A DNA stretch of 64,000 bases, from NCBI GenBank assembly GCA_964106915.2, contig OZ066926.1. One strand, 5' to 3'. A model generated the notes under the pieces. That model saw only the letters and a program-made list of their open reading frames with translations, was not told the DNA's origin and ran no database searches. Shown here piece by piece: positions 10,028 through 45,364 of this stretch. The translations under genes and the position numbers were made by a program. Numbering within the stretch: position 1 is the first letter of the stretch; every line of letters starts with the position of its first letter. Source of the DNA: Podarcis gaigeae (taxonomy: Eukaryota).

Positions 10028-13000
10028 GTAATAGAGGGGCAGGAGGGACTGGGGAGGAGGGGGGTCCAGAGGGAGGACAAATGCCTTATAAACACATAGC
10101 CACAGCCCGTGCAGCAGGACTGTAGCCCATGACATTGTAGCCCATAATAAGGGGGTTGGCCTGTAAAGTGCCACAGGACTCTCTTGTGTTTGCTGCAGCA
10201 GACTGACGAGGCTATTACACTCCCCCCAAACCCCAGGAAACATTATTTTAACACAATGCAAGATATAGTAATAAAAAATGTTAACGTTATCAGGCAGTCT
10301 TTTGAATATCTCAAAACTCTTGTGGGTGGAAGATAATCAGGTTAAAAAAAGGGCAAGCCTGTTATGTACAGTGGTACCTCAGGTTAAGTACTTAATTCGT
10401 TCCAGAGGTCCGTACTTAACCTGAAACTGTTCTTAACCTGAAGCACTACTTTAGTAATGGGGCCTCCTGCTGCTGCCGCACCGCCGGAGCACAATTTCTG
10501 TTCTCATCCTGAAGCAAAGTTCTTAACCCGAGGTAATATTTCTGGGTTAGCGGAGTCTGTAACCTGGAGTGTATGTAACCTGAAGCGTATGTAACTCGTG
10601 GTACCACTGTATTTATTCATTTAGAATGCTTGGATTCTCCTTTTTTTAGCCCAAAGAGACACTTAAAGTGGTTTCCAAAACAACAACAACAAAACTCCCA
10701 AATCCCACTCAGACTTGTGTTGGAACAAAAGCAGCATGTAGCTAGAATAATTCAGGTAGTATAAGTTCAGGTAGTATAGAATATTTTTTTAAAGTTATTA
10801 TTTCTCCCTGCCCCCCCCCCCCCAGGCCTGTGGTCTACAGAAGCTGTTTGCTGTGGAGGCAGACTTTGAAGATGAGGTAAGAGAATATTGGTGAATCTGG
10901 ATGTATCTGCAAACAAAAGATACCCTTAAGCCTCCCATGGGCTCTCAGGCTCAGAATGTCCATGTAGTACAAAGCTGAGGGATGGCACTTAATGACAAGC
11001 ATTCTGTTTCTCTGTTCTTGGTAGGATTTTCTGTCAGCTGTGAATGATGTGGAGAAGCAAGCCCTGGATCCACCTACAGATAGCTCAAGAAGTCTTAGAC
11101 CCTTCTCAACTGGGTTGAGAGCCCCCAGCACCACCATTCCGGTCTCTGAGGGGCCAAGGATGACCATGTCCCCAGTCTTGCAGGTGCAGAACTGCTCCAG
11201 ACTAAGGTTTGGAGAAGGTAATGTCAAAAGCAGCCAGAAGACTCCTCTGGCGACCAGCTTCACAGTTCAGAAGGACCTGGCACCCACTGCAACTGAATGT
11301 AAATCAAGCGGCACTTCAAGCACAAGGTTCAGGTTTGTGAAGCAGCCTCCAACTAAGCTCCCCACTGGGGGTGCCCCCTGCGATGAGGAAATTGACAACG
11401 AGCTTGTATTGGCTGCGTGCATGGATCTGGAAGAGTCTGAAACACAGTCATATCCGGGGTCCTTCAGGTCCAACTGTATGTCCTGGGAGCAAATGCGAGA
11501 TAATAGTGTAGCAACAGCGAAGAAACCACGAGTGGTAGATTCGCTGGCATTGACTGACTCTTTTGGGTCAGAGACCTCACAGTTGCAAAGGACTTGGAAA
11601 CAACCCGTGGTAGAGGTCATCAGCCATCTGAAGCCGGCAGAGACTTCTCCGAAGTTGCCATTGAGGCCTCCTGCCGTAGACTCTTCCTCGTCTCAGTCTC
11701 GCCTAGGGTTGAGTAGCAGCACATGTGCCCTTACAAACTCCAGCTGCCAGGTGCTCAGGCCTTTCCAGGCATCTCTGCAAAAACCCACTGCCACATCCAA
11801 CAGCCCATGCTTGCCTCTGGTTAGACCCTGCTCTTCTTTTCAGTCAGCAAGTACCCCAACAAGGCCGCACAAACCATGGATGCCCAATCAGAGCTGCTCT
11901 GTGTCCAGAACGGCCAATTCTGGTGCTCAGCTGCTTTCTGCATATGGTCCCCAAGCAACCTCTATGGAGACTTCACCTGCCAACCCTAAAGTTCCCGGAA
12001 ACCTCCAGTCACCTGTGGTCACCAATCACCTTGTCCGTTTGGTCACAGCAGCCAACAAGATGCCAGAGCCAGTGACCCAAGTTCCTTTGCGGGCTAAGAC
12101 ACGGCGCTTCCCAGGACCTGCTGGCATTCTGCCACATCAAGTAAGAGGGCCAGCATGATAATAGGGCAATCTTTATGTTGGGGATGGGGAGTGTATGGCT
12201 GTCTAGATAGTAACTATAGCTACCTTTGGCTCTAACCATTGGCCATGTTGCCTGGGGCTGAGGGGAGGTGCAGTTCAGCAGCATCTGGAGAGTCACAGGT
12301 TAGCCACCCCTGCTGTATGTACAAAGGAGTGAGGATGCTTTGGAACCCATACTTTTCCATGTATAAGACTAGGTTTTTTACTCTAAAATAGTGTTTAAAC
12401 TACAGAGCCTAGGGCTTCCCAATCAGAAGGTCGGCTGTTTGAATGCCTGCGATGGGGTGAGCTCCTGTTGCTCAGTCCCTGTTCCTACCAACCTAGCAGT
12501 TCAAAAGCACGTCAAAGTGCAAGTAGATAAATAGGTACTGCTCCGGCGGGAAGGTAAACGGCATTTCTGTGCGCTGCTCTGGTTCGCCAGAAGCGGCTTA
12601 GTCATGCTGGCCACATGACCCAGAAGCTGTACACCGGCTCCCTCGGCCAGTAAAGCGATTTGAGCACCTCAACCCCAGAGTTGTCCGCGACTGGACCTAA
12701 CGGCTAGGGGTCCCTTTACCTTAATGTTTAAAAACAGGGGTCATCTTATACACAGGGGTCATATTTCCCCATTTTCATAAATTTTTGAGTCCCCCAAAAT
12801 AGGGGGGGTGTTATACACGGGGGGGATGTTATACACAGAAAAATACGGTATATGTGTGTCATGAAATATTTTTACCTTATTTCCTCCAATCCACCCACAC
12901 TTGCTATGTCACAAAAGGGGCATAAAAGCTGCCATCCTCCCTAAGTTTTCTCTGCTCCAAAATGGCTGCTATAGTTATTCTAATATGGAGATGACTAATT

Positions 13001-25470: not shown

Positions 25471-28400
25471 ATGTCGAAGGAAACTTTCACGTTCACTTCT
25501 TCCACCCTTCGCTCCCTGCGTCTGCAGCGAGAAATGCTGGAATGGGAAGACCGGCGGAGGGCTGCGTCTCGCCAGTCTGTGAGTCGGAGGTACCAGCCTA
25601 GTTTGGGGAGCCTCTCTGCACTCCCCAAACTTTCCCGACGCCCACAGTATTGTCGGGATCCTGCTGTTCACAATGCCCTGTACACAGGAGACCTTCCAAG
25701 AGTCCGGAGCATTTTTAAGGATGAATCTACTGCCAACTTGATTGTGGAGACCCTCAGTGAGGAGCTGGTGTGGTCTGCCGAAATGGGTAAGAAGGGGTTG
25801 TCCATAGTGGGGGTTGTCCATAGGGGTTGTCACTTGGATTGGTCACTGGCCTTTTAGATTTTGACTCAGTTCTGTGGGGGTGGGAGACTTTTCAAGGCTT
25901 GGGTTCTGGCAGGACGACAAGTTGGAGCACAGGAATTTTGGTCCCACTGGGGAAAGATTCAGCATTGCAGGGTCTGTTATTAGGATTTCTTTTTAGCTTA
26001 GAAGGGCGTGGGGAGACGAAAAAGAACATGATAGAGGTATATAAAACGAATAATCTGCGTGCACTCACTGTCCTGAAAACAGTTTCACTGCCCTTTAAAT
26101 GCCCAGTATTTTTTATAAAAAAAAAAAAAACAGGTAAAGTGAATAGCCAGAAATTTAGTTGTAATCACAAAAATGTGGCCACTTCAGTAAAAGTGGTTAG
26201 TTTGGAATCCCCTTATGAAAAGTGGTATTCTGACTTCCGGAGGCGGCGCGAACGGTAATGGCTGCCCTTTCCTAACCGGGAGAGGGAAGCTCCGCTGGAA
26301 AAGGGTCGTCCGCTACGGCGAAGCGGAGACCCATTTTGGAAAACCGCAGGCAGCGGAAGCCTGCGGTCTCGGGACCCGGCGGGCGCCAGGAGCAACCCCC
26401 GAAACGTTGAGGGAACCCCGTAAGGGGCTCCGGATCGCAGAGGGGGCAGCGGCGCTGTGGGTCTATGCGCATTCAGCGGAGCGAAGCCGCGCTGCTGTTG
26501 CCGGTGAGCGCCGACCTTTCTTCCTGCAACACAAGATTCTGAAACGCAACAACCCGTGAGTAACTGAGGATTTTACTAAATTTTGGGACTAAAAATACTG
26601 AAAATAAGCTGAAAGCGGAGTGACGAGGAAAAGGAAGTCCGTCTTCCGCAGCCATTGACTTTTAAAGCAAAGAGCAGGAGGAGTGGAGGCACAGAGAGAA
26701 CTTTTGACAGCTCAGATTGAGCACCCGCAGAAATTACTTTCAATCCCCTTAAAGACTGTAAGTAACTGATTTTTGGACTTTTATCAGGACTTATATATCC
26801 TCTTCTTTGTGGATTACAACTTTACTTAAGAAGCCCAGGTGTCAGAACTGCCTGAGCAGTAGAACTGTCAGACTGCAAATTTGGATACATTGTATTTAAA
26901 CTTTGAGACAATCTGAGGGAGTTCAGAATGGTTACGTTCTTGCACTACGGAACTCCAGTAAGCACAACTTGAAATATTGTGGCAAACTTAAAACCAACTC
27001 TGCTAAAACTACTTTTGTGAAGATTCCTAAGTATTGGTTCAGATTTTGTATGATTGGAATGGACTCTTCTTCTTAGGACATTTTATGCTCCCCCTAGAGG
27101 ATTGAGGATTTATAACAAAAACATTGTTTTACTTTCTATTTCCCGGCCCTCTGTTTGACTGCTACCACCTGGGCCGTTGCTTTCTCATGGGAACAACTCA
27201 GCTTGACCTTGACTGCTAGATAACTCTGGAATGAGTGGCGCAAAAAGAAAGGGATTAAGAACTAGACAAACAACTCTGACAACCTTAACTGCAGCCTCAC
27301 AAACACGCAGATCATCTGTGCCTACTCTGCCCTCGGAGGAAAAAGCTACCTCCCTGTCACAGGCAGGGGAGGGAGAAACTGAGGAATTACAACTAGAAGA
27401 GATGGCCTCAGGAGGATCTGGTTCTGTATTAGAGAGAATTCTTGAGAAATTGGAGTCTTTGGACAGGAAAGTTGACCAACAAACTGCGAAAATTGACCTT
27501 AATACAGAAACTTTAAACAAATTATCTGGGCAAGTTGCACAAAATGCACAAGCAATCGGACAACTGAAGGAGGCTGCAGGTGAAAATCAGAGACTGGCCG
27601 AAGAGACCAGTCAAAGAGTGGGAGAGTTGGAAAAAGAAGTAAGGCCGCTCAGCAAGCAGGTTGGGGAACACCAGACCTACCTCTCTATGTTGGAACTTCG
27701 GAACAGGGAGACTAACTTAAGGATAAGATCGATACCAGAAGCGGAAGAAGGCAATCTAGCTGAGTTTTTGACCAAAGAATTCTCCAAGTTCTGGGGTCTA
27801 GAGGAGGAAGACTTTAAAATTGTGTCAGCCTTCAGACTTGGAAGACTCATAAAGAGAGAGAAGCCCAGAGACTGTTTGATTACGTTGAGATCAAAGGAGG
27901 AAAGGGACAAGATTTTGGGCCTGCACTACGGAAGATCCCTGAACATTTCGGACAAAAGAATTGAGATTTTTAAGGACATTCCTAAACAGCTGTTGGACCT
28001 CAGATCTGAATATCTGGACTTAGTAAAACTGCTGAGAAGCAACTCAATCATCTTTAGGTGGGACTTTCCTCAAGGATTATCCTTTACCTTTAGAGGGAAG
28101 AAGATTAAAATCAGAACTTTGGAAGATAGGGATAAGTTTTTGACTGCCTACGGAGAGGACCTTCATAAAGGACTTGAACTACCCCCAGGGCCTGAACCAC
28201 CACAGGTACCTGCACCACAGAACCCTGAAGACTCACAGAACAAAACACCATCCCAAGGAAATTAAACAGATTCATCCAGGATGTCTCTGCAACTTTTAAG
28301 CTGGAATATAAATGGCTGTAACAGCCCGGAAAAAAGGAAGAAAATCTTTCACATATTAAAAAAGGAGCAACTAGACATTACTTGTCTACAAGAAACACAT

Positions 28401-31400
28401 GTGACTAGGCCCCACAGAAAAATATTGGTAAATAAAAGGTTAGGCCAAGAATTTATATCTTCGGATTCAGTTAAGAAGAGAGGAGTGGTGATATATGCAA
28501 AGGAGAGCCTCTCACCAAAATTTCTATTTAAAGATGAACATGGAAGAATTTTGGCAATTGAAATACAGCACCAAGGAGAGAAAATTTTGATATTAGGAAT
28601 CTACGCTCCAAATGAAGGGAAATCAGAATTCTACAAGAAGTTGCATGAGATTATGCTGGACTATCTGGACTACGATAACATCATCATGATGGGAGATATG
28701 AATGGGATCGTCTCAACGAACATGGATAGGTCACAAAGCCAAAAGGTTACTAAAGATGGCAGACTACCAAAGACCTTTTTCGAAATGACAGACAACATGG
28801 ACTGGATTGACATATGGAGGACAAAGAACCCCTTGGGGAAAGAAGGAACATTTTTCTCTGAAGCCCAACTGACTTGGACAAGAATTGACCAAATATGGAT
28901 TTCTAGAGGTCTGGCTCCTAAGGTTAGGAAAGTGGAAATCTGCCCAAAGACCTGCTCCGATCATAACGCGTTGAAAATGGACATGACATTATTACCAACC
29001 GGCTCCTTTAGATGGAAGATGAATGACAACTTGTTTAGAGATCAGGAGATTATTAAGAAGGCCAAAAAAACAATAAAGGACTATTTTGAGATAAATTTGA
29101 ACACTGCAGTGGAAAAAAGAACAATCTGGGACGCAAGCAAAGCTGTGATGAGAGGGTTCTTGATACAACAGAACGCCATAAAGAAAAGACTACAAAATGA
29201 GAAAAAAGATAAGATTTTGGGGAAAATTAAAGAATTAGAGAAGAAACTAAGAGTAAACCCGAAGTCACAGCCGATCTTGAGAGAAATTAAACTTCATCAG
29301 GCACAATATTCCAAACTGATAAATCAGGAAATAGAATGGAAGATTAAATTAATGAAACAAAAAACATTTGAATCGGCTAACAAATGTGGGAAACTGCTGG
29401 CTTGGCAGTTGAAGAAGAGACAAAAGTTGAACATAGTAACAAATTTGGAAATAGAAGGAAGATATATTCAGAACCCGGTGGAAATTAGAAAATGTTTCCA
29501 GAAATATTTTAAGAAATTATACACTCAAGGGCCACAAAATGAGGAAGAGATTGCAAAATTTTTGGAGAAAAATGGACTTAAAAAACTATCACAAGAAAAT
29601 AGATCACTCCTGAATAGTAAAATAACACGATTAGAGATAGAACATGCCATTCAGAATATGAAGCTGGGCAAGTCTCCAGGGCCAGATGGCTTGACCTCCA
29701 AGTACTATAAGACATTAAGTGACTATTTGATTCAACCACTGATGGAGGTCAGCAATGAAATTATGGAGGGAAAGAAGGCGCCTGAATCGTGGAAGGAAGC
29801 TTTCATCACATTGATACCAAAATCAGAAACTGAAAAGACACAACTTAAGAACTACCGTCCCATTTCCCTTTTAAATGTGGATTATAAAATATTTGCTGAT
29901 GTTTTGGCAGGAAGACTCAAAAGAGTTTTAAATGAGATAATTCATAAAGACCAGGCAGGCTTTCTCCCAGGAAGACACTTGTTTGCTAATACAAGGAACA
30001 TTATTGACATTTTGGAACTTTTGCAAACAAATATTAACACTAAAGCAGTTTTAATTTTTATAGACGCGGAGAAGGCCTTCGATAACATCTCTTGGAAATT
30101 TATGAAGGGGAATTTAAAAGAAATGGGAGTGGGGCGGGGTTTTGAAAATGGGATTGATGCGATTTACTCAGAACAAAAGGCAAAACTGATAGTTAACAAT
30201 GTGGTTACAGAAGAGTTTAAGATTGAAAAAGGGACACGACAAGGCTGCCCGATTTCCCCCTTGCTGTTTATTTCTGTCCTGGAGGTGCTCTTGAACTTGA
30301 TTAGAGGGGACCGGTTGGTGCAAGGGATTCAGATCGGAGCGAAACAATATAAACTTAAAGCTTTTGCAGATGACCTTGTCTTGACATTGCAAGAGCCAGA
30401 ATCTAGCACAAAAAGAGTGTTACAATTGATTCAGGACTTTGGTCGGGTGGCGGGTTTCAAACTAAATAAACAGAAAACTAAGGTGTTGGGAAAAAACTTG
30501 ACAGATACAGAGTTGGAACGGTTTCAGAGAGAAACAGAATTAAATTTGGTAAAAAGGGTGAAGTACCTAGGGGTAAATATAACAGCAAAAAATTTATGTC
30601 TCTTTAAGGATAACTATGATAAATGTTGGTCTGAAATTAAGAGAGACTTGGACAGCTGGACAAATTTGAAGCTTTCTTTGTTAGGCCGAATTGCTGCTAT
30701 CAAGATGAATGTATTGCCAAAGATGTTGTTTTTGTTTCAAACGTTGCAGATTGTAGACAAAACGGAGTGTTTCCGGAAGTGGCAGAGAGATATTTCTAAA
30801 TTTGTCTGGCAGGGCAAAAAGCCCAGAATTAAGTTCAAGATACTAACTGATGCGAAAGAAAGAGGGGGCTTTGCCCTGCCAGACTTAAGGCTGTACTATG
30901 AAGCCGCAGCTTTCTGCTGGCTAAAAGACTGGCTACTTCTAGAAGACACTGATGTCTTAGATCTGGAAGGTTTTAACAATGCATTTGGTTGGCATGCATA
31001 CTTATGGTATGATAAAGTTAAGATCAATAAGGCCTTTAAGAATCATATCGTCAGGAAAGCAGTGTTTAATGTCTGGACAAAATACAAAGACCTATTGGAA
31101 AATAAAACTCCAAGATGGCTATCACCTCTGGAGGCCAAGGCCCGAAAAAGACCCAATATGGAGGCCAAATGGCCGAAATATTGGGAAATAATAGAGAAAG
31201 AGGGCAATAATTGGAAATTGCAGAGTTTGGAAAAAATGAAAGACAAAGTGCGAGACTGGTTACACTACGCTCAGATCCAAGAAATTTTTAAAAATGATAA
31301 AAAGTTAGGATTCCAGGTGGAGAAATCGAAGTTGGAAACAGAATTGTTAGAACCTAAGACTAAAGTACTCTCAAGAATGTATAACTTGCTGTTGAAATGG

Positions 31401-34400
31401 AATACACAAGATGAAATGGTTAAGTCGGCCATGATAAAGTGGGCACAGGATATTGGGCATAATATTATGTTTGAGGATTGGGAAAGGTTGTGGACCACGG
31501 GGATGAACTTCACGGCATGTAATGCTCTGAAGGAAAATGTAATGAAAATGATATATAGGTGGTACATGACCCCAGTTAAACTTGCCAAAATATGCCATGT
31601 GCCAGACAATAAATGTTGGAAATGTAAGGAAAATGAAGGAACATTCTTTCACCTCTGGTGGACTTGTCCCAGGGTGAAGGCCTTCTGGGAAATGATATAT
31701 AATGAGCTGAAAAAGGTATTTAAGTATACCTTCCTTAAGAAACCAGAGGCCTTCCTCTTGGGCATTGTCGGCCAGATGGTGCCAAAGAAGGATCGAACAT
31801 TCTTTTTGTACGCAACAGCAGCAGCAAGGATACTTATCGCTAAGAAGTGGAAAACTCAAGATCTACCCACGCTGGAAGAATGGCAGATGCAGCTGATGGA
31901 CTATATGCAAATGGCAGAGATGACTGGCAGAATTCGAGACCTGGGAGAAGAGAGGGTTGAAGAAGATTGGAGGAAATTTAAGACTTATTTACAAAAATAT
32001 TGTGATTTGGTGGAAAGTTAAGTAGGATGTTTGATCATAAATAATTGGCCACCACAAAATCGGATTGGAATGGGATGTAAAGCGAGACTAAGAGAAACAA
32101 ACTTTCAGAGGACTATATTTAAATAAGCGGTTATAAAATTTGCAAACTAGATGATAAATTGCATGGAAAAAATTTATGATGATGAAAATGGCAGTGGGAG
32201 ATGTGAGGAAGTCCAAAGAAGTTATGAAACTCTGTTGAGATAAAAGTAAGGTTGTCTATTGTCTTTGTACTCTATTCTGTAAAAAACCCTAATAAAAATT
32301 TTATTTAAAAAAAGAAAAAAAAGAAAAGTGGTATTCTTTGTAAACAGAGCCTTCTGTCACATTGCTTTTATTGCAACATAGGTATTTTGACATGGAACCA
32401 GTAGCAACTTTGGCAGAAAATGTTTGCTATTTTCTCTCTGCCGTCAACAAGTTGCGACACTTTTAAGAGCAATAGCCTTGAACTTCCTCAGACTTCCTCA
32501 GAGGCCCACGTTAATCCACAACCTGCAACACATTGCCCAGATTTAAGTAGTTTCAGGGCAAACAGCAGTTTTATTTCATCCTCACTCGCTTGCATGGAAT
32601 TTCTGATCACTAACAGTTACCCAGGCTAATGCTTAAATTCAAGAGCTGGTCTACCATGAGGCTATTGCTTTGGGAAAGCTCCCCAGCAGAGAACGATGGA
32701 GAAAGTCGTACTGTGCTGTTTGCTCCCATCACCAGAGAATCGTGGAATTCTGTGCTTCTAAATATTTATTAAGGTATTTGTTTCGCTCATTGGCTATCAT
32801 GGCTGATAGTCATATCGTCAGATTTTGTGGCAGCCTAATTATGCGCTGTGGGAAGGATTTTCTGTTTGTTTACCCTGAACCTATTGCAAATCCATTTAAA
32901 TGGCGGTGTTAACCTGCCGCTTCTCAGTTTCTAATCCTCCTGCCCAATAATCGTCTTCTGCAGGGCTGTGGGTGCTGACCCCCCAGAAGAAGCACACTTC
33001 TCCATTGTGCATCACAGCGGCCAGAGGCTACCAGGACTGCGTGAAGCACCTGCTTCTACAAGGGGCCGAGGTTGATGCTGTCATTGGTGGGAAAGCCGCC
33101 ATTCACGAAAGCTGTGCCAACCACCGCGCAGAGTGCACCCGCCTGCTCCTGAGCTACAGCGCAAACCCCAACCTTCTTTCGGAGGACGGACTGGCCCCTC
33201 TGCATCTCTGCACCACTCAGGAGTCTTTGCCGTATGTCTGGGAAATTGGGAAGGGGTGTATGTTTGTGGATTGAAGTGTTGCAGCAATAAGGCGACAGCA
33301 GAATAGCGGCAAAGTAATTAGCCAAATAGGACTAACGATTAGCCTCTATTAAACTAACAATTAGCCTTCCTGGTGGACTTGGCAGGGGGCTCCTTAATTC
33401 AATTGCAAAAGTGTCTTTCTCCCATGCTAAATTAAATGTAGATTGTACTACCTCAATACATTATGCAAAGCATGGTGTTAAATATTACAATCCGTGGACA
33501 ATTCAGATTCTGAAGCAAGAACCACCAAGTTTAATCTTGTTACGCATAATTGCTTTTGTTTACTCTGTTCCCTACTGTTTTCTGGTCCTGCTAGTCATGG
33601 GGGTGGAGAGCATCTTTGCAGGGCAGTGGAACCCCAATCACTGGCACCCTTCTCCAGCTGCGCTTCCTGAGAAAGCTGGATTCTTCTGTGAATGAAAAGT
33701 GTCCAGTTGAGCCGGGGTGAATGTAGCCAATGAACACACCAGAGTGGAAAGCCATGGCAGAAGGCACAGATTAGGTTAATACCCAACTCTCCACAACTCT
33801 GAAGAGTGCACAACACATATTTATACAGTCCCGGTACATTGTTACACGTGAAGGACGCGTGATCATGTGCTTCAACAGAATACCTTGCATTCAGTCTTCC
33901 TGTGGTCTTGGAGTTCGATTCCCAGAGTCTTGTCACTCTCCCAGACATTATTGACACTACCAGGAAATTTTCAACCACAAGGTCTGTTGCAAGTGGACAA
34001 CTTGACTTTTGCTTCTAAAAGCACCTTGTGGACAGCTAAATGGGTCATGCTAAGTAGGCCATACCGTTTGCAAGCATATCTAACTGGGGGGGGGGGGGAG
34101 AAGCCATTGTTATGGACACACTTAGGCCAAAAGGGTCTCTCTAGCCCCTTCACTTCCAGCTGCAGGGTCATGTCCTATATGGGGCCTGATTCTTTTAAAA
34201 CAAAAAAACAAAAACAGAGTAGCAGAACACTGTGTTCACTGCTGCTTCCCCAGATAAATATTGTGCAAAATTCCTGCACCCACCCATGGGTTGGATCGTC
34301 TGATGGTTGCCAAATCCCCCACAGCTACTCCTTGTGCTTTCCAGATGTGCCCAGCTGCTCCTGGAGTATGGAGCTCTGGTGAACCAGAATACAAGAGACC

Positions 34401-36404
34401 ACCGCGCTTCCCCATTGCACGTGGCTGCAAAACACGGCCTGGACGACCACGCGAAGCTCTACCTCTGCTTTGGAGCAAAGGTTGCCCACAGGAACCGAGA
34501 GGGAGAGACAGCCCTCAACGCGGCCTGCGCCAGTGCAGACAGGCCTGAGGAGGCTGGCCGCTACTACCGGGTGGTGAAGCGGCTGCTGGAAGGTGGGGCC
34601 GACGTCCGGATAGCTGGCCGGAAGAACCATACGCCCCTGCACAATGCCTGCAGCAACTGCCACATCCGCATTGTGGAGCTTCTGCTGCAGCACGGGGCAC
34701 AGGTCAACGTTAGAAACTGCGCCGGCTACACACCTGTGGATTGTGCCCTGCAAGCAGTGGAAGATTACCTGGAGGGGCAACCTGAGAGGCTTATAGCCAC
34801 CTTGCTCGACCATGGTGCTGCTTCTATCAATCCCAAGGTAAGGGGTGCCACCTCTATAAACTGCTGGCTGACCTTGGTATTGGGGAACCTTTTTGTACAT
34901 TCAACCCAATAGGAGGAGAAGGCAGGGCTGGCCACACCATTAGGCAGCTTTGGGGTAGCAAAGAGGTGCTGGAGGGCAGAGTTGTTTGTAGGGTGTGGTC
35001 TGCCCTGCGCCCCTTAAGCTACCTTGTTGTATTTTTGTATTTCTATCCCGCCCTCCCCAGCCGAAGCCGGGCTCGGGGCGGCTAACAACAATAAAATAAA
35101 TAATAATAAAATAAAATACAACATTCTAAAATCATTTCATTATAAAATTAATTCAAATCAAATTGATGGCAACCATTGGGCTAGAGTTCTGTGAAGATTG
35201 CCAAAGGAGGGAGTCAGGCTGCGCCCTGACCAAAGGCCTGGTGGAACAGCTCTGTCTTGCAGGCCCTGAGGAAAGATGTCAAGTCCCACAGGGCCCTAGT
35301 CTCTTGTGACAGAGCGTTCCACCAGATCAGAGCCACAGCCGAAAAAGCCCTGGCTCTAGTTGAGGCCACCCTAACTTCTCTGTGGCCTGGGACCTTCAAG
35401 ATGTTTTTGTTAGAAGACCGTAAGTTCCTCTGTGGGACATACCAGGAAAGGCGGTCCTGTAGGTACGTAAGTATGATGGAGGACACTCTCTCCTATTGTC
35501 AGCACAGTAGTAAATTTAACCTACCATTCAGCATGTGGAAAACAAAGTGGGCAGAAGTCATTTAGTCCTTGGTTAGGCAGCAACATGGTTTGGGTTAGTC
35601 CTTAGGCAGTGGGGAGGAGAACATTTGTCTGTGGCAGCCTTGGCCAACCTGGTGCCCTCCAGATGTTCTGGGCCACAGCTCCGTAAGTCATGTCTGTAAA
35701 TAGAAGGAAAGGAATGATATGAGAGAATCAAGGTTTGGTGGGGCCTGGAGATGGAAGAAGGGGTCCCTGGGAGTACGAGTGGAACCAGGGGTTGTGCAGG
35801 AGTCTGATGTCCCACTTCCTGGTTATTGGAAGTCATGCTCTGCAACCCCCACTTGTCTTTTTTCCTGAAATTTCCACCAGGTTTTGCCAGCATGTTCCTA
35901 AACAGTTTCCCACAGCCATATGTATTCTAAACATTTCTTTTTAAAATGTGTACTACAAGATACCCAGGATTACATATACTGTGCTTAATTATTTTACTGA
36001 GCCCTTGAAATCTTGGTCTCTGATATATGCACCCTCTTGGTCTTTTGGATTTCATCCTTTCAAGTTTATAAGAGCTAGAATGTATCTCTCTTCTGCCTTC
36101 CTTTGCCAAGGAAAATTCCCTGGAAATACTCAGAAGTCCTAACTGGAATCTTTCTGTTTTCTTTCCTTTTTCTTTCTTAATACTGAATTAAATTTATTTT
36201 TAGGCACTGTGATAATACAGGAGTTCTGGCTGAAGACTTCCAAGGGATGTAGCATAGGAGATTGCTCTGATTTTATCTGTGCGGGATTGATAATTATATT
36301 ATTTTATGTACCTTGCTTAAAGCAAGTTTTTCCATTAAGCAGTTTATATATATATTTCTAAATAAATAACTGAATCTTCTTTTCTTTCCAGTATGCTCAC
36401 ACGT

Positions 36405-36448
<44 letters not shown>

Positions 36449-37435
36449 TGGTAATTTTGCCTTCAGATGCTAAAATTTTGTGCCTTGTCACCTCAGGCTA
36501 TGGAAGTTGTTCTAAATTCCTATGACCGGATCCCACCCTGTGATTCTTGGGTGGATTCTGTGCCTCTTGAAGTGTGGCAGGTAAATTCCTCCAATCGAAT
36601 GTAATGCAACACAAAAACAAACACATATACACACACTTATGCAATCACAAGGCTTGCTGTTTTGTCCTGCAAAATCTATTTATCTACTTGCACTGGCGTG
36701 CCTTCGAACTGCTAGGTAGGCAGGAGCTGGGACAGAGCAACAGGAGCTCACCCTGTATGCCCTATAGGATAATATGACTTTGTATGGCATGCCTGCCTGG
36801 TTGCTTCTGCTACTACAGACAGGGAACCTGCGGCCCTCCAGTTATTGCAGTTCCTATTGGCCTCAGCCAAGGCTCAGGGAGAAGAATGAGAGGATTATGT
36901 TTGTGGTGGTCAGTGGAGGCTGATGTGTCTTAAGACTCAGAAGGCAGAGAGGCCAACACAGAGTGGACCCAGGGCTAATAACAGGCAGAGCCAACTAATT
37001 CTAGGTTTGCGCCTTCCCTCCTCGCTGCTGATTTCTATAGTGACAACACCAAGACTAAGGAGGAGGGAGTTGACTGCCAGGACCACTTCCCTAGGCTGGT
37101 TGTAAGCAAAAAGGCAGGCTGGTGGGAAGTGCCTGAGGGCAGACTGCAGTTGGTGGGGGAGTACCCAATTCACCTGCATGGACCAGCCTGGTGCTGTGGT
37201 GTGTGTGTGCGTTCAATGCCTCATTTTACTTTTCTTTGCATTTTGACAGGAGCATCAGGTGTTCTACGATTCAGCCATCTACCTGGTGAATCAGCCCCGC
37301 CCTCTGCAACATCTGGCTCGTTGTGCTGTGCGGAAGCAGCTGGGGCCGCAATGCCATCAGGGCATTGCTCAGTTGAAACTGCCCTCTTCTCTGCAAGACT
37401 ACCTGCATCTCCCACTGGAGGGCTATCTCCAGTGA
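25471..37435 (+). CDS. ASB16: Ankyrin repeat and SOCS box protein 16, 458 aa
   Basis: Exons 25471..25786, 32964..33231, 34345..34837, 36467..36580, 37250..37435 (1377 nt, phases 1/2/0/0). N-terminus MSKETFTFTSSTLRSLRLQREMLEWEDRRRAA; ankyrin repeats (SPLHVAA, TPLHNAC); SOCS box PRPLQHLARCAVRKQLG..LKLPSSLQDYL. Confidence 0.96.
27231..28265 (+). CDS. LINE-1 ORF1p (coiled-coil RNA-binding protein), 344 aa
   Basis: Long heptad coiled coil then ELRNRETNLRIRSIPE (L1 RRM entry motif), AFRLG..KPRDCLI, IEIFKDI; lies directly upstream of ORF2. Confidence 0.92.
   Translation: MSGAKRKGLRTRQTTLTTLTAASQTRRSSVPTLPSEEKATSLSQAGEGETEELQLEEMASGGSGSVLERILEKLESLDRKVDQQTAKIDLNTETLNKLSGQVAQNAQAIGQLKEAAGENQRLAEETSQRVGELEKEVRPLSKQVGEHQTYLSMLELRNRETNLRIRSIPEAEEGNLAEFLTKEFSKFWGLEEEDFKIVSAFRLGRLIKREKPRDCLITLRSKEERDKILGLHYGRSLNISDKRIEIFKDIPKQLLDLRSEYLDLVKLLRSNSIIFRWDFPQGLSFTFRGKKIKIRTLEDRDKFLTAYGEDLHKGLELPPGPEPPQVPAPQNPEDSQNKTPSQGN
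28281..32021 (+). CDS. LINE-1 ORF2p (APE endonuclease, reverse transcriptase, Cys-rich domain), 1246 aa
   Basis: EN: SWNING, CLQETH, GIYAPN, GDMN, RIDQI, SDH. RT: KSPGPDG, NYRPISLLNVDYKI, DAEKAFD, GTRQGCPISPLLF, FADD, KYLG. C-terminal CWKCKENEGTFFHLWWTC. No stops or frameshifts. Confidence 0.97.
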   Translation: MSLQLLSWNINGCNSPEKRKKIFHILKKEQLDITCLQETHVTRPHRKILVNKRLGQEFISSDSVKKRGVVIYAKESLSPKFLFKDEHGRILAIEIQHQGEKILILGIYAPNEGKSEFYKKLHEIMLDYLDYDNIIMMGDMNGIVSTNMDRSQSQKVTKDGRLPKTFFEMTDNMDWIDIWRTKNPLGKEGTFFSEAQLTWTRIDQIWISRGLAPKVRKVEICPKTCSDHNALKMDMTLLPTGSFRWKMNDNLFRDQEIIKKAKKTIKDYFEINLNTAVEKRTIWDASKAVMRGFLIQQNAIKKRLQNEKKDKILGKIKELEKKLRVNPKSQPILREIKLHQAQYSKLINQEIEWKIKLMKQKTFESANKCGKLLAWQLKKRQKLNIVTNLEIEGRYIQNPVEIRKCFQKYFKKLYTQGPQNEEEIAKFLEKNGLKKLSQENRSLLNSKITRLEIEHAIQNMKLGKSPGPDGLTSKYYKTLSDYLIQPLMEVSNEIMEGKKAPESWKEAFITLIPKSETEKTQLKNYRPISLLNVDYKIFADVLAGRLKRVLNEIIHKDQAGFLPGRHLFANTRNIIDILELLQTNINTKAVLIFIDAEKAFDNISWKFMKGNLKEMGVGRGFENGIDAIYSEQKAKLIVNNVVTEEFKIEKGTRQGCPISPLLFISVLEVLLNLIRGDRLVQGIQIGAKQYKLKAFADDLVLTLQEPESSTKRVLQLIQDFGRVAGFKLNKQKTKVLGKNLTDTELERFQRETELNLVKRVKYLGVNITAKNLCLFKDNYDKCWSEIKRDLDSWTNLKLSLLGRIAAIKMNVLPKMLFLFQTLQIVDKTECFRKWQRDISKFVWQGKKPRIKFKILTDAKERGGFALPDLRLYYEAAAFCWLKDWLLLEDTDVLDLEGFNNAFGWHAYLWYDKVKINKAFKNHIVRKAVFNVWTKYKDLLENKTPRWLSPLEAKARKRPNMEAKWPKYWEIIEKEGNNWKLQSLEKMKDKVRDWLHYAQIQEIFKNDKKLGFQVEKSKLETELLEPKTKVLSRMYNLLLKWNTQDEMVKSAMIKWAQDIGHNIMFEDWERLWTTGMNFTACNALKENVMKMIYRWYMTPVKLAKICHVPDNKCWKCKENEGTFFHLWWTCPRVKAFWEMIYNELKKVFKYTFLKKPEAFLLGIVGQMVPKKDRTFFLYATAAARILIAKKWKTQDLPTLEEWQMQLMDYMQMAEMTGRIRDLGEERVEEDWRKFKTYLQKYCDLVES
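35040..35468 (-). mobile_element. L2 LINE 3' end (second subfamily)
   Basis: Minus-strand peptide RARAFSAVALIWWNALSQETRALWDLTSFLRACKTELFHQAF is an L2 C-terminus. Confidence 0.7.
36407..36446. repeat. (TC)n microsatellite just upstream of the ASB16 exon 4 acceptor
   Basis: About 20 TC units ending about 20 bp before cttcag|ATG. Confidence 0.9.

Positions 37436-43014: not shown

Positions 43015-45364
<2,350 letters not shown>

Follow-up and report, generated by a model that had tools for sequence, protein, structure and literature searches.

How did a complete retrotransposon come to lie in the first intron of a lizard gene, and what has followed from its presence there? The question is raised by a stretch of 64,000 nucleotides from Podarcis gaigeae (NCBI GenBank assembly GCA_964106915.2, contig OZ066926.1), called the window below, in which a LINE-1 (L1), a long interspersed element, occupies intron 1 of ASB16 in the sense orientation. 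We consider it very probable that this element is a full-length, open-frame L1 of lizard clade-1 type, present in the assembled animal and absent in others, which likely is a recent arrival, copied by ordinary target-primed reverse transcription from another member of a large young family. A preliminary description of the DNA had gone further and treated the element as a candidate source of new copies with an odd target site.

Anatomy and affinity of the element

The L1 proper spans 26232-32322 (6,091 bp). The preliminary description had given the element as 26217-32337, a span that includes the duplications of the target site on either side. These duplications form the direct repeat GAAAAGTGGTATTCT, which matches at 15 of 15 positions, as had been stated, and has no third occurrence in the window. 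The parts of the insertion are as follows (UTR, untranslated region; ORF, open reading frame).

26217..26231, + strand: left target-site duplication, 15 bp, found by repeat comparison and present as a single copy in empty-site contigs
26232..27230, + strand: L1 5′UTR, 999 bp, beginning GACTTCCGG as in Anolis clade-1 L1 (terminus per PMC5381506)
27231..28265, + strand: ORF1, 344 amino acids (1,035 bp), an open reading frame
28281..32021, + strand: ORF2, 1246 amino acids (3,741 bp), with APE endonuclease, reverse transcriptase (FADD) and a C-X2-C-X8-H-X4-C knuckle, from profile and protein matches
32022..32322, + strand: 3′UTR, about 300 bp, with AATAAA at 32291 and an A7-G-A8 tail, read from the sequence
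32323..32337, + strand: right target-site duplication, 15 bp

Both ORFs are open, as had been described, and Pfam, an alignment to human ORF2p and a motif check between them show the endonuclease, reverse transcriptase and cysteine motifs. ORF2 matches the Pfam families RVT_1 (E 1.8e-37) and Exo_endo_phos (E 3.8e-13) and is colinear with human L1 ORF2p over residues 4-1213 (PDB 8sxt, E 7.9e-176). It retains the endonuclease motifs, FADD and a CWKC-x8-H-x4-C knuckle, and all catalytic motifs checked are present. ORF1, which lies 15 bp upstream of ORF2, is coiled-coil-like at residues 67-147 and beyond them bears a weak likeness to the RRM-CTD of human ORF1p; residues 126-290 match LINE-1 ORF1p in PDB weakly (E 0.067), and coiled-coil matches were also returned. 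A 114-amino-acid ORF whose start, at 26215, falls in the flank was regarded as chance. Judging by these frames and motifs, the window copy could likely retrotranspose if expressed.

The two untranslated ends depart in part from the preliminary account. The 5′UTR is complete, but it is CpG-rich only in its first 300 bp or so (26232-26531), where an island of 33 CpG lies, and the remainder is AT-rich with few CpG. At the 3′ end, AATAAA at 32291 precedes an A tail of 16 bases that includes one G, as had been noted; this hexamer is, however, not the only one, since the sense strand of the element contains 13 AATAAA or ATTAAA hexamers, compared with none in the host portions of intron 1.

The element shares with L1-clade LINEs an ORF2 that combines APE and reverse transcriptase, a Cys/His knuckle that fits the consensus C-X2/3-C-X7/8-H-X4-C (PMC5381506), a poly(A) signal, an A tail and a target-site duplication. 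Within that clade it fits a lizard clade-1 type L1, a placement based on anatomy against the published description of the Anolis carolinensis clade rather than on aligned Anolis sequences (PMC5381506). Clade-1 L1 in Anolis have a 5′UTR of 792–1,465 bp, an ORF1 of 762–1,125 bp, a spacer of 0–110 bp and an ORF2 of 3,645–3,813 bp, in a total of 6,151–6,703 bp. The window copy shares the GACTTCCGG terminus, the long 5′UTR and the short spacer, and the sizes of all its parts fall within range; the AT-rich 3′UTR, the C-X2-C-X8-H-X4-C knuckle and the terminal AATAAA with an A tail are also shared (PMC5381506). It differs in having one CpG island instead of two (an exception family exists in Anolis too), in a guanine-plus-cytosine content of 44% and 38% in its two ORFs compared with about 37% and 33.5%, and in a terminus that diverges from the printed consensus past GACTTCCGG (PMC5381506).

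Allelic state, age and place in the family

Six DNA-type sequencing runs were compared with the window. Runs X1, X2 and X3 carry the window's own organism label (organism A), with X1 from sample S1 and X2 and X3 from sample S2; X4 and X6 are two samples of organism B, and X5 is from organism C, organisms B and C being related species. In X1, a single contig joins 25400-26225 directly to 32332-33300, so that the site is cleanly empty; the 15-mer occurs there once, and two flank bases differ from the window. Clean empty sites are also found in X4, X6 and X5, making four of the six runs, while in X2 and X3 contigs pass from the flank into the element, with no substitutions among the flank pieces listed. 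Flank divergence from the window is about 0.1% in X1, about 1% in organism C and about 2% in organism B. The empty sites in X1 and in organisms B and C thus place an empty allele within organism label A and make the empty state ancestral. The earlier suggestion of a very recent and possibly polymorphic insertion is thereby supported directly: the insertion is recent and polymorphic. X1 is possibly the same animal as the window, in which case that animal is a heterozygote and the conclusion of polymorphism is unchanged. At 90%, organism B leaves 26720-26983 of the 5′UTR without cover; promoter turnover was not accepted as a reading of this gap, as the contigs show presence only.

The insertion probably came about in the following way. 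A parent copy elsewhere would have been transcribed from its own 5′UTR promoter. The junction suggests that ORF2p then nicked the bottom strand at TTTTC/AT and that the resulting C-ended primer was extended on the poly(A) tail. Reverse copying would have run through to the 5′ terminus, with the duplication, which is itself observed, arising from a second cut at a distance of 15 bp. Within the species label the allele is now segregating, as seen in the two samples, with no detectable offspring in the assembly.

Several points weigh against this account. The total length of the element lies slightly below the Anolis clade-1 range, and the Pfam scan of ORF1 returned no family above the cut-off. 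Organism A is represented by two samples only, and one label may cover several lineages. In addition, the filled-allele contigs of X2 and X3 enter the element by only 26-27 bases, which is under the 31-base bridge rule, so that it is mainly the assembly that attests the filled allele. The same short reach, together with the lack of any contig covering the whole element, is what might be expected if the insertion were an assembly artefact, or else one that is fixed in the lineage. Either is very improbable: the duplication is perfect, the sequence is unique (its nearest copy being 0.3% away), two runs of a single sample have junction contigs, and other samples have clean empty sites.

The family from which a recent insertion by reverse transcription would have come is large. 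Genome-wide, the 5′-terminal 31-mer of the element has 312 exact matches (control 0) and its 3′-terminal 30-mer has 57. Of 76 other loci fetched, which were chosen by similarity and include two flank-duplicated pairs, 33 are full length, and both ORFs are of full size in 27 of these 33. The nearest copies differ from the window copy by 0.30, 0.43 and 0.57%. Green anoles offer a close parallel: 13 anole genomes yielded 1,089 full-length polymorphic L1 insertions (PMC5389967), and full-length polymorphic L1s are selected against in anoles (PMC3787681). There, as here, such insertions are young, full length and present or absent among individuals, and about 40% of anole polymorphic insertions are complete (PMC5389967, PMC3787681). 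The difference is that one exact 5′ terminus is found in at least 312 copies here, whereas the anole reference has 170 full-length L1 in 20 families (PMC5389967, PMC3787681).

A copy this young, with both ORFs and the promoter intact and only 0.3-0.6% from its nearest relatives in the youngest part of the family, might be an active (hot) source element, driven by the ASB16 locus or by its own promoter. Five diagnostic bases set it apart from the first 23 near-full-length copies, and three of them, at 27592, 31911 and 32256, were still private after further copies were added; the formerly private base at 27611 also occurs in L086 and L109, and that at 32102 in L087. None of the 76 other loci fetched has the full set, and 32256C is present in none of the fetched copies covering that position. 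Exact genome-wide patterns over the diagnostic bases return the window's own locus only, or that locus plus one old fragment that is 77.6% identical (78% in round figures), and no daughter. The preliminary description had proposed a search for sequence beyond 32337 carried to other sites, but the 3′ flank is single-copy in the assembly and no 3′ transduction was found; this view extends over one assembly, with other animals and somatic cells outside it. With no daughter and no 3′ transduction, the term "source element" is unsupported, and an active source is improbable. What stands of that earlier proposal is the intactness of the copy, a property that the 27 other full-length copies share equally. 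The window copy is unremarkable within its family, which is large and has hundreds of young copies.

Two candidate daughters were rejected. L077/L079 fits one diagnostic pattern but is the 77.6%-identical old copy, and L087 has older-subfamily variants and, of two bases apparently in common with the window copy, one that is an alignment gap.

Other observations concern the family at large. L012/L013 (C19) and L071/L075 (C31) are full-length pairs with common flanks, pointing to segmental duplication after insertion or to assembly duplication. In L057 and L102, the 3′ flank is L1 ORF2-like, meaning that one L1 was inserted in another. The tail of L008 has a short non-A stretch like the L002 junction, a possible micro-transduction of parental flank. 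L064, L066, L069-L071, L073 and L075 have 16-18 gap columns in common relative to the window copy and probably form a small-indel subfamily. L096 has a 5′ inversion, and L085 and L093 are split alignments. The 5′ ends of L080, L081, L087, L090, L101, L105 and L108 cluster at the equivalent of window positions 31909-31939, about 400 bp from the 3′ end, so that 7 of the 30 truncated copies of the second set have starts that fall within 31 bases of one another (post hoc p about 1e-5). Six of these seven have duplications of their own, and the four that were compared have older variants in common. No hairpin was found at this position (z 0.15), and the cluster may be a truncation hot spot or a short non-autonomous subfamily.

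The host gene and its surroundings

The host gene is ASB16, on the + strand, and gecko ASB16 maps to five exons by tblastn. The exon-3 peptide is 91% identical to a gecko protein without a gene name; among named proteins, its best lizard ASB16 matches are at 85-89% (89% in Eublepharis). These matches point to a squamate genome. The reading frame begins at 25471.

25471..25786, + strand: ASB16 coding exon 1, with donor GT at 25787; tblastn match to gecko ASB16 P0002 amino acids 1-106, 81%; the match of a relative's contig guessed to be RNA (X17) ends at 25787
32964..33231, + strand: ASB16 exon 2, ankyrin repeats
34345..34837, + strand: ASB16 exon 3, ankyrin repeats
36464..36580, + strand: ASB16 exon 4, ends approximate (tblastn)
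37247..37435, + strand: ASB16 exon 5, C-terminal part, ends approximate (tblastn)

Intron 1 extends over 25787-32963 and measures 7,177 bp; minus the element and one duplication it would be 1,071 bp, in agreement with the enlargement from about 1.1 to about 7.2 kb given earlier. Between the element and the splice sites there are 445 bp on the donor side and 626 bp on the acceptor side. A simple splice-site scan of the element gave no strong acceptor or donor match, by a rule so strict that the true exon-2 acceptor was also missed. Because of these distances and the lack of a strong splice-site-like match in that simple scan, any effect of the element on ASB16 would most likely be small or mildly negative, the 13 sense hexamers being added all the same.

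A stronger effect can be envisaged, in which the filled allele is hypomorphic: ASB16 transcripts would end early at poly(A) signals of the L1, or silencing would be brought in by its CpG island, which is 445 bp away from exon 1, with less ASB16 in muscle as the outcome. The sense orientation and the contrast between 13 hexamers in the element and none in the host intron point this way, and premature polyadenylation by L1 has been described (as cited in PMC5381506). Human ASB16, which is little studied, is muscle-preferential, and enhancer chromatin spans its promoter to intron 2 (PMC8594701). We nevertheless regard such an allele as rather unlikely, as the contigs of S2 run unbranched from the flank into the element, suggesting an animal that carries the insertion on both chromosomes, and the splice-site scan, within its own limit, gave no strong match. 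In two runs of relatives guessed to be RNA, matches end at exon edges and no joint of exon 1 to exon 2 was seen among the contigs listed; these runs were not used as evidence on the insertion.

Elsewhere in the window, a very high-copy repeat lies at about 35070-35680, in ASB16 intron 3, with a summed contig depth in the hundreds of thousands. Positions 1516-2415 hold a class C G-protein-coupled receptor seven-transmembrane exon (PF00003, E 5.5e-83), which we take to be probably from a vomeronasal type-2 receptor. Open frames at 11160-12158, 43015-43566 and 44831-45364, the first two without a Pfam match and the third outside that scan, presumably resemble HROB and TMUB2 exons, which would fit the human gene order around ASB16.

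Target sites of the family

The preliminary description had singled out the target of the window copy as non-canonical. Its nick would be at ttat/GAAAA (bottom strand TTTTC/AT). For comparison within the family, a duplication was taken to be the longest match, of 10 bp or more, that the 5′ flank shares with the sequence beyond the poly(A) signal. The rule gave 39 duplications at 45 loci (two flank duplicates having been dropped) and 26 at 33 further loci, or 65 of 78 in all, with none at 13; they are 11-22 bp long (median 17 bp), in agreement with the longer duplications of squamate L1 (bioRxiv 10.64898/2026.06.26.733778).

Immediately before the duplication stands a pyrimidine in 61 of 65 cases (36/39, then 25/26), and position -2 has no T bias (T in 19/65). 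The first duplicated base is A in 30 cases, T in 18, G in 13 and C in 4, and thus other than A in 35 of 65; since a start at A is hard to tell from the tail, the count of non-A starts is, if anything, too low. A occupies duplicated position 2 in 54 of 65 cases and position 4 in 57. The site over these loci is thus Y/NAAAA (bottom strand TTTTN/R), which is likely looser than the site of the human element, the human side of this comparison being a published consensus without a numeric table. The window copy's T/GAAAA is typical within the family, and with 13 of 65 duplications beginning with G its target is no oddity. A preference for the shifted register was dropped: of the 30 cases that allow either register, 19 have the shifted one (13/18 in the first set, 6/12 in the second), which does not differ from even (p 0.20), and both registers are used.

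Human L1 has the target consensus 5′-TTTTT/AA-3′ (PMC8565326). The window copy keeps the endonuclease catalytic motifs and FADD of human ORF2p, and the family has in common with human L1 a T-rich primer and, in 61 of 65 sites, a purine on the 3′ side of the nick. The differences are that in the family the base 5′ of the nick is free (bottom-strand T in 30, A in 18, C in 13 and G in 4 of 65), that the second A of "AA" is not favoured (19/65), and that in the window copy Pro197/His198 of the minor-groove loop are replaced by Ala/Gln; in the human enzyme, where these two residues contact the minor groove, loop swaps did not shift nicking to other sites (PMC8565326). The order of primer ends in the family is T, then A and C, then G, which is near the order T>C>A>G of priming in human L1 (PMC3649969), and part of the pattern may therefore be shared biology. 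Bottom-strand TTTTC/A counts as a degenerate L1 site whose terminal mismatch is the best tolerated (PMC3649969).

Where the A tail is interrupted, the last non-A letter is the junction base in 12 of 12 cases (10/10, then 2/2), which could be due to re-priming during insertion or to later replication slippage. It is possible, though doubtful, that the family has a distinct integration chemistry, in which TTTTN/R rather than TTTT/AA would be nicked, often one base past the T-tract at a purine-purine step, with mismatched-purine priming in 22 of 65 cases and re-priming on the target that rewrites the junction base in the A tail. No description of a reptile L1 target motif or of target-patterned tails was found in the literature searched, with subscription papers and the supplements of bioRxiv 10.64898/2026.06.26.733778 outside that search. 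The looser register is possibly new, and is the only such point, a modest lead.

The insertion itself is one more case of what anoles already show. With its two natural alleles, it does make it possible to test if a first-intron L1 that is full-length and in sense lowers the output of a reptile gene, and it can be used as a population marker. The family-level target pattern matters more than the insertion. The rules of L1 targeting were drawn almost entirely from the human enzyme, and it is debated whether nicking or priming gives rise to the TTTT/AA bias (PMC12809410). In a naturally occurring L1 whose primer-end base is free, this question could be tested. If the family does have its own integration chemistry, the one-base shift could explain the longer target duplications of squamate L1, and dozens of intact segregating copies would provide a non-mammalian model in which endonuclease choice can be separated from primer choice.

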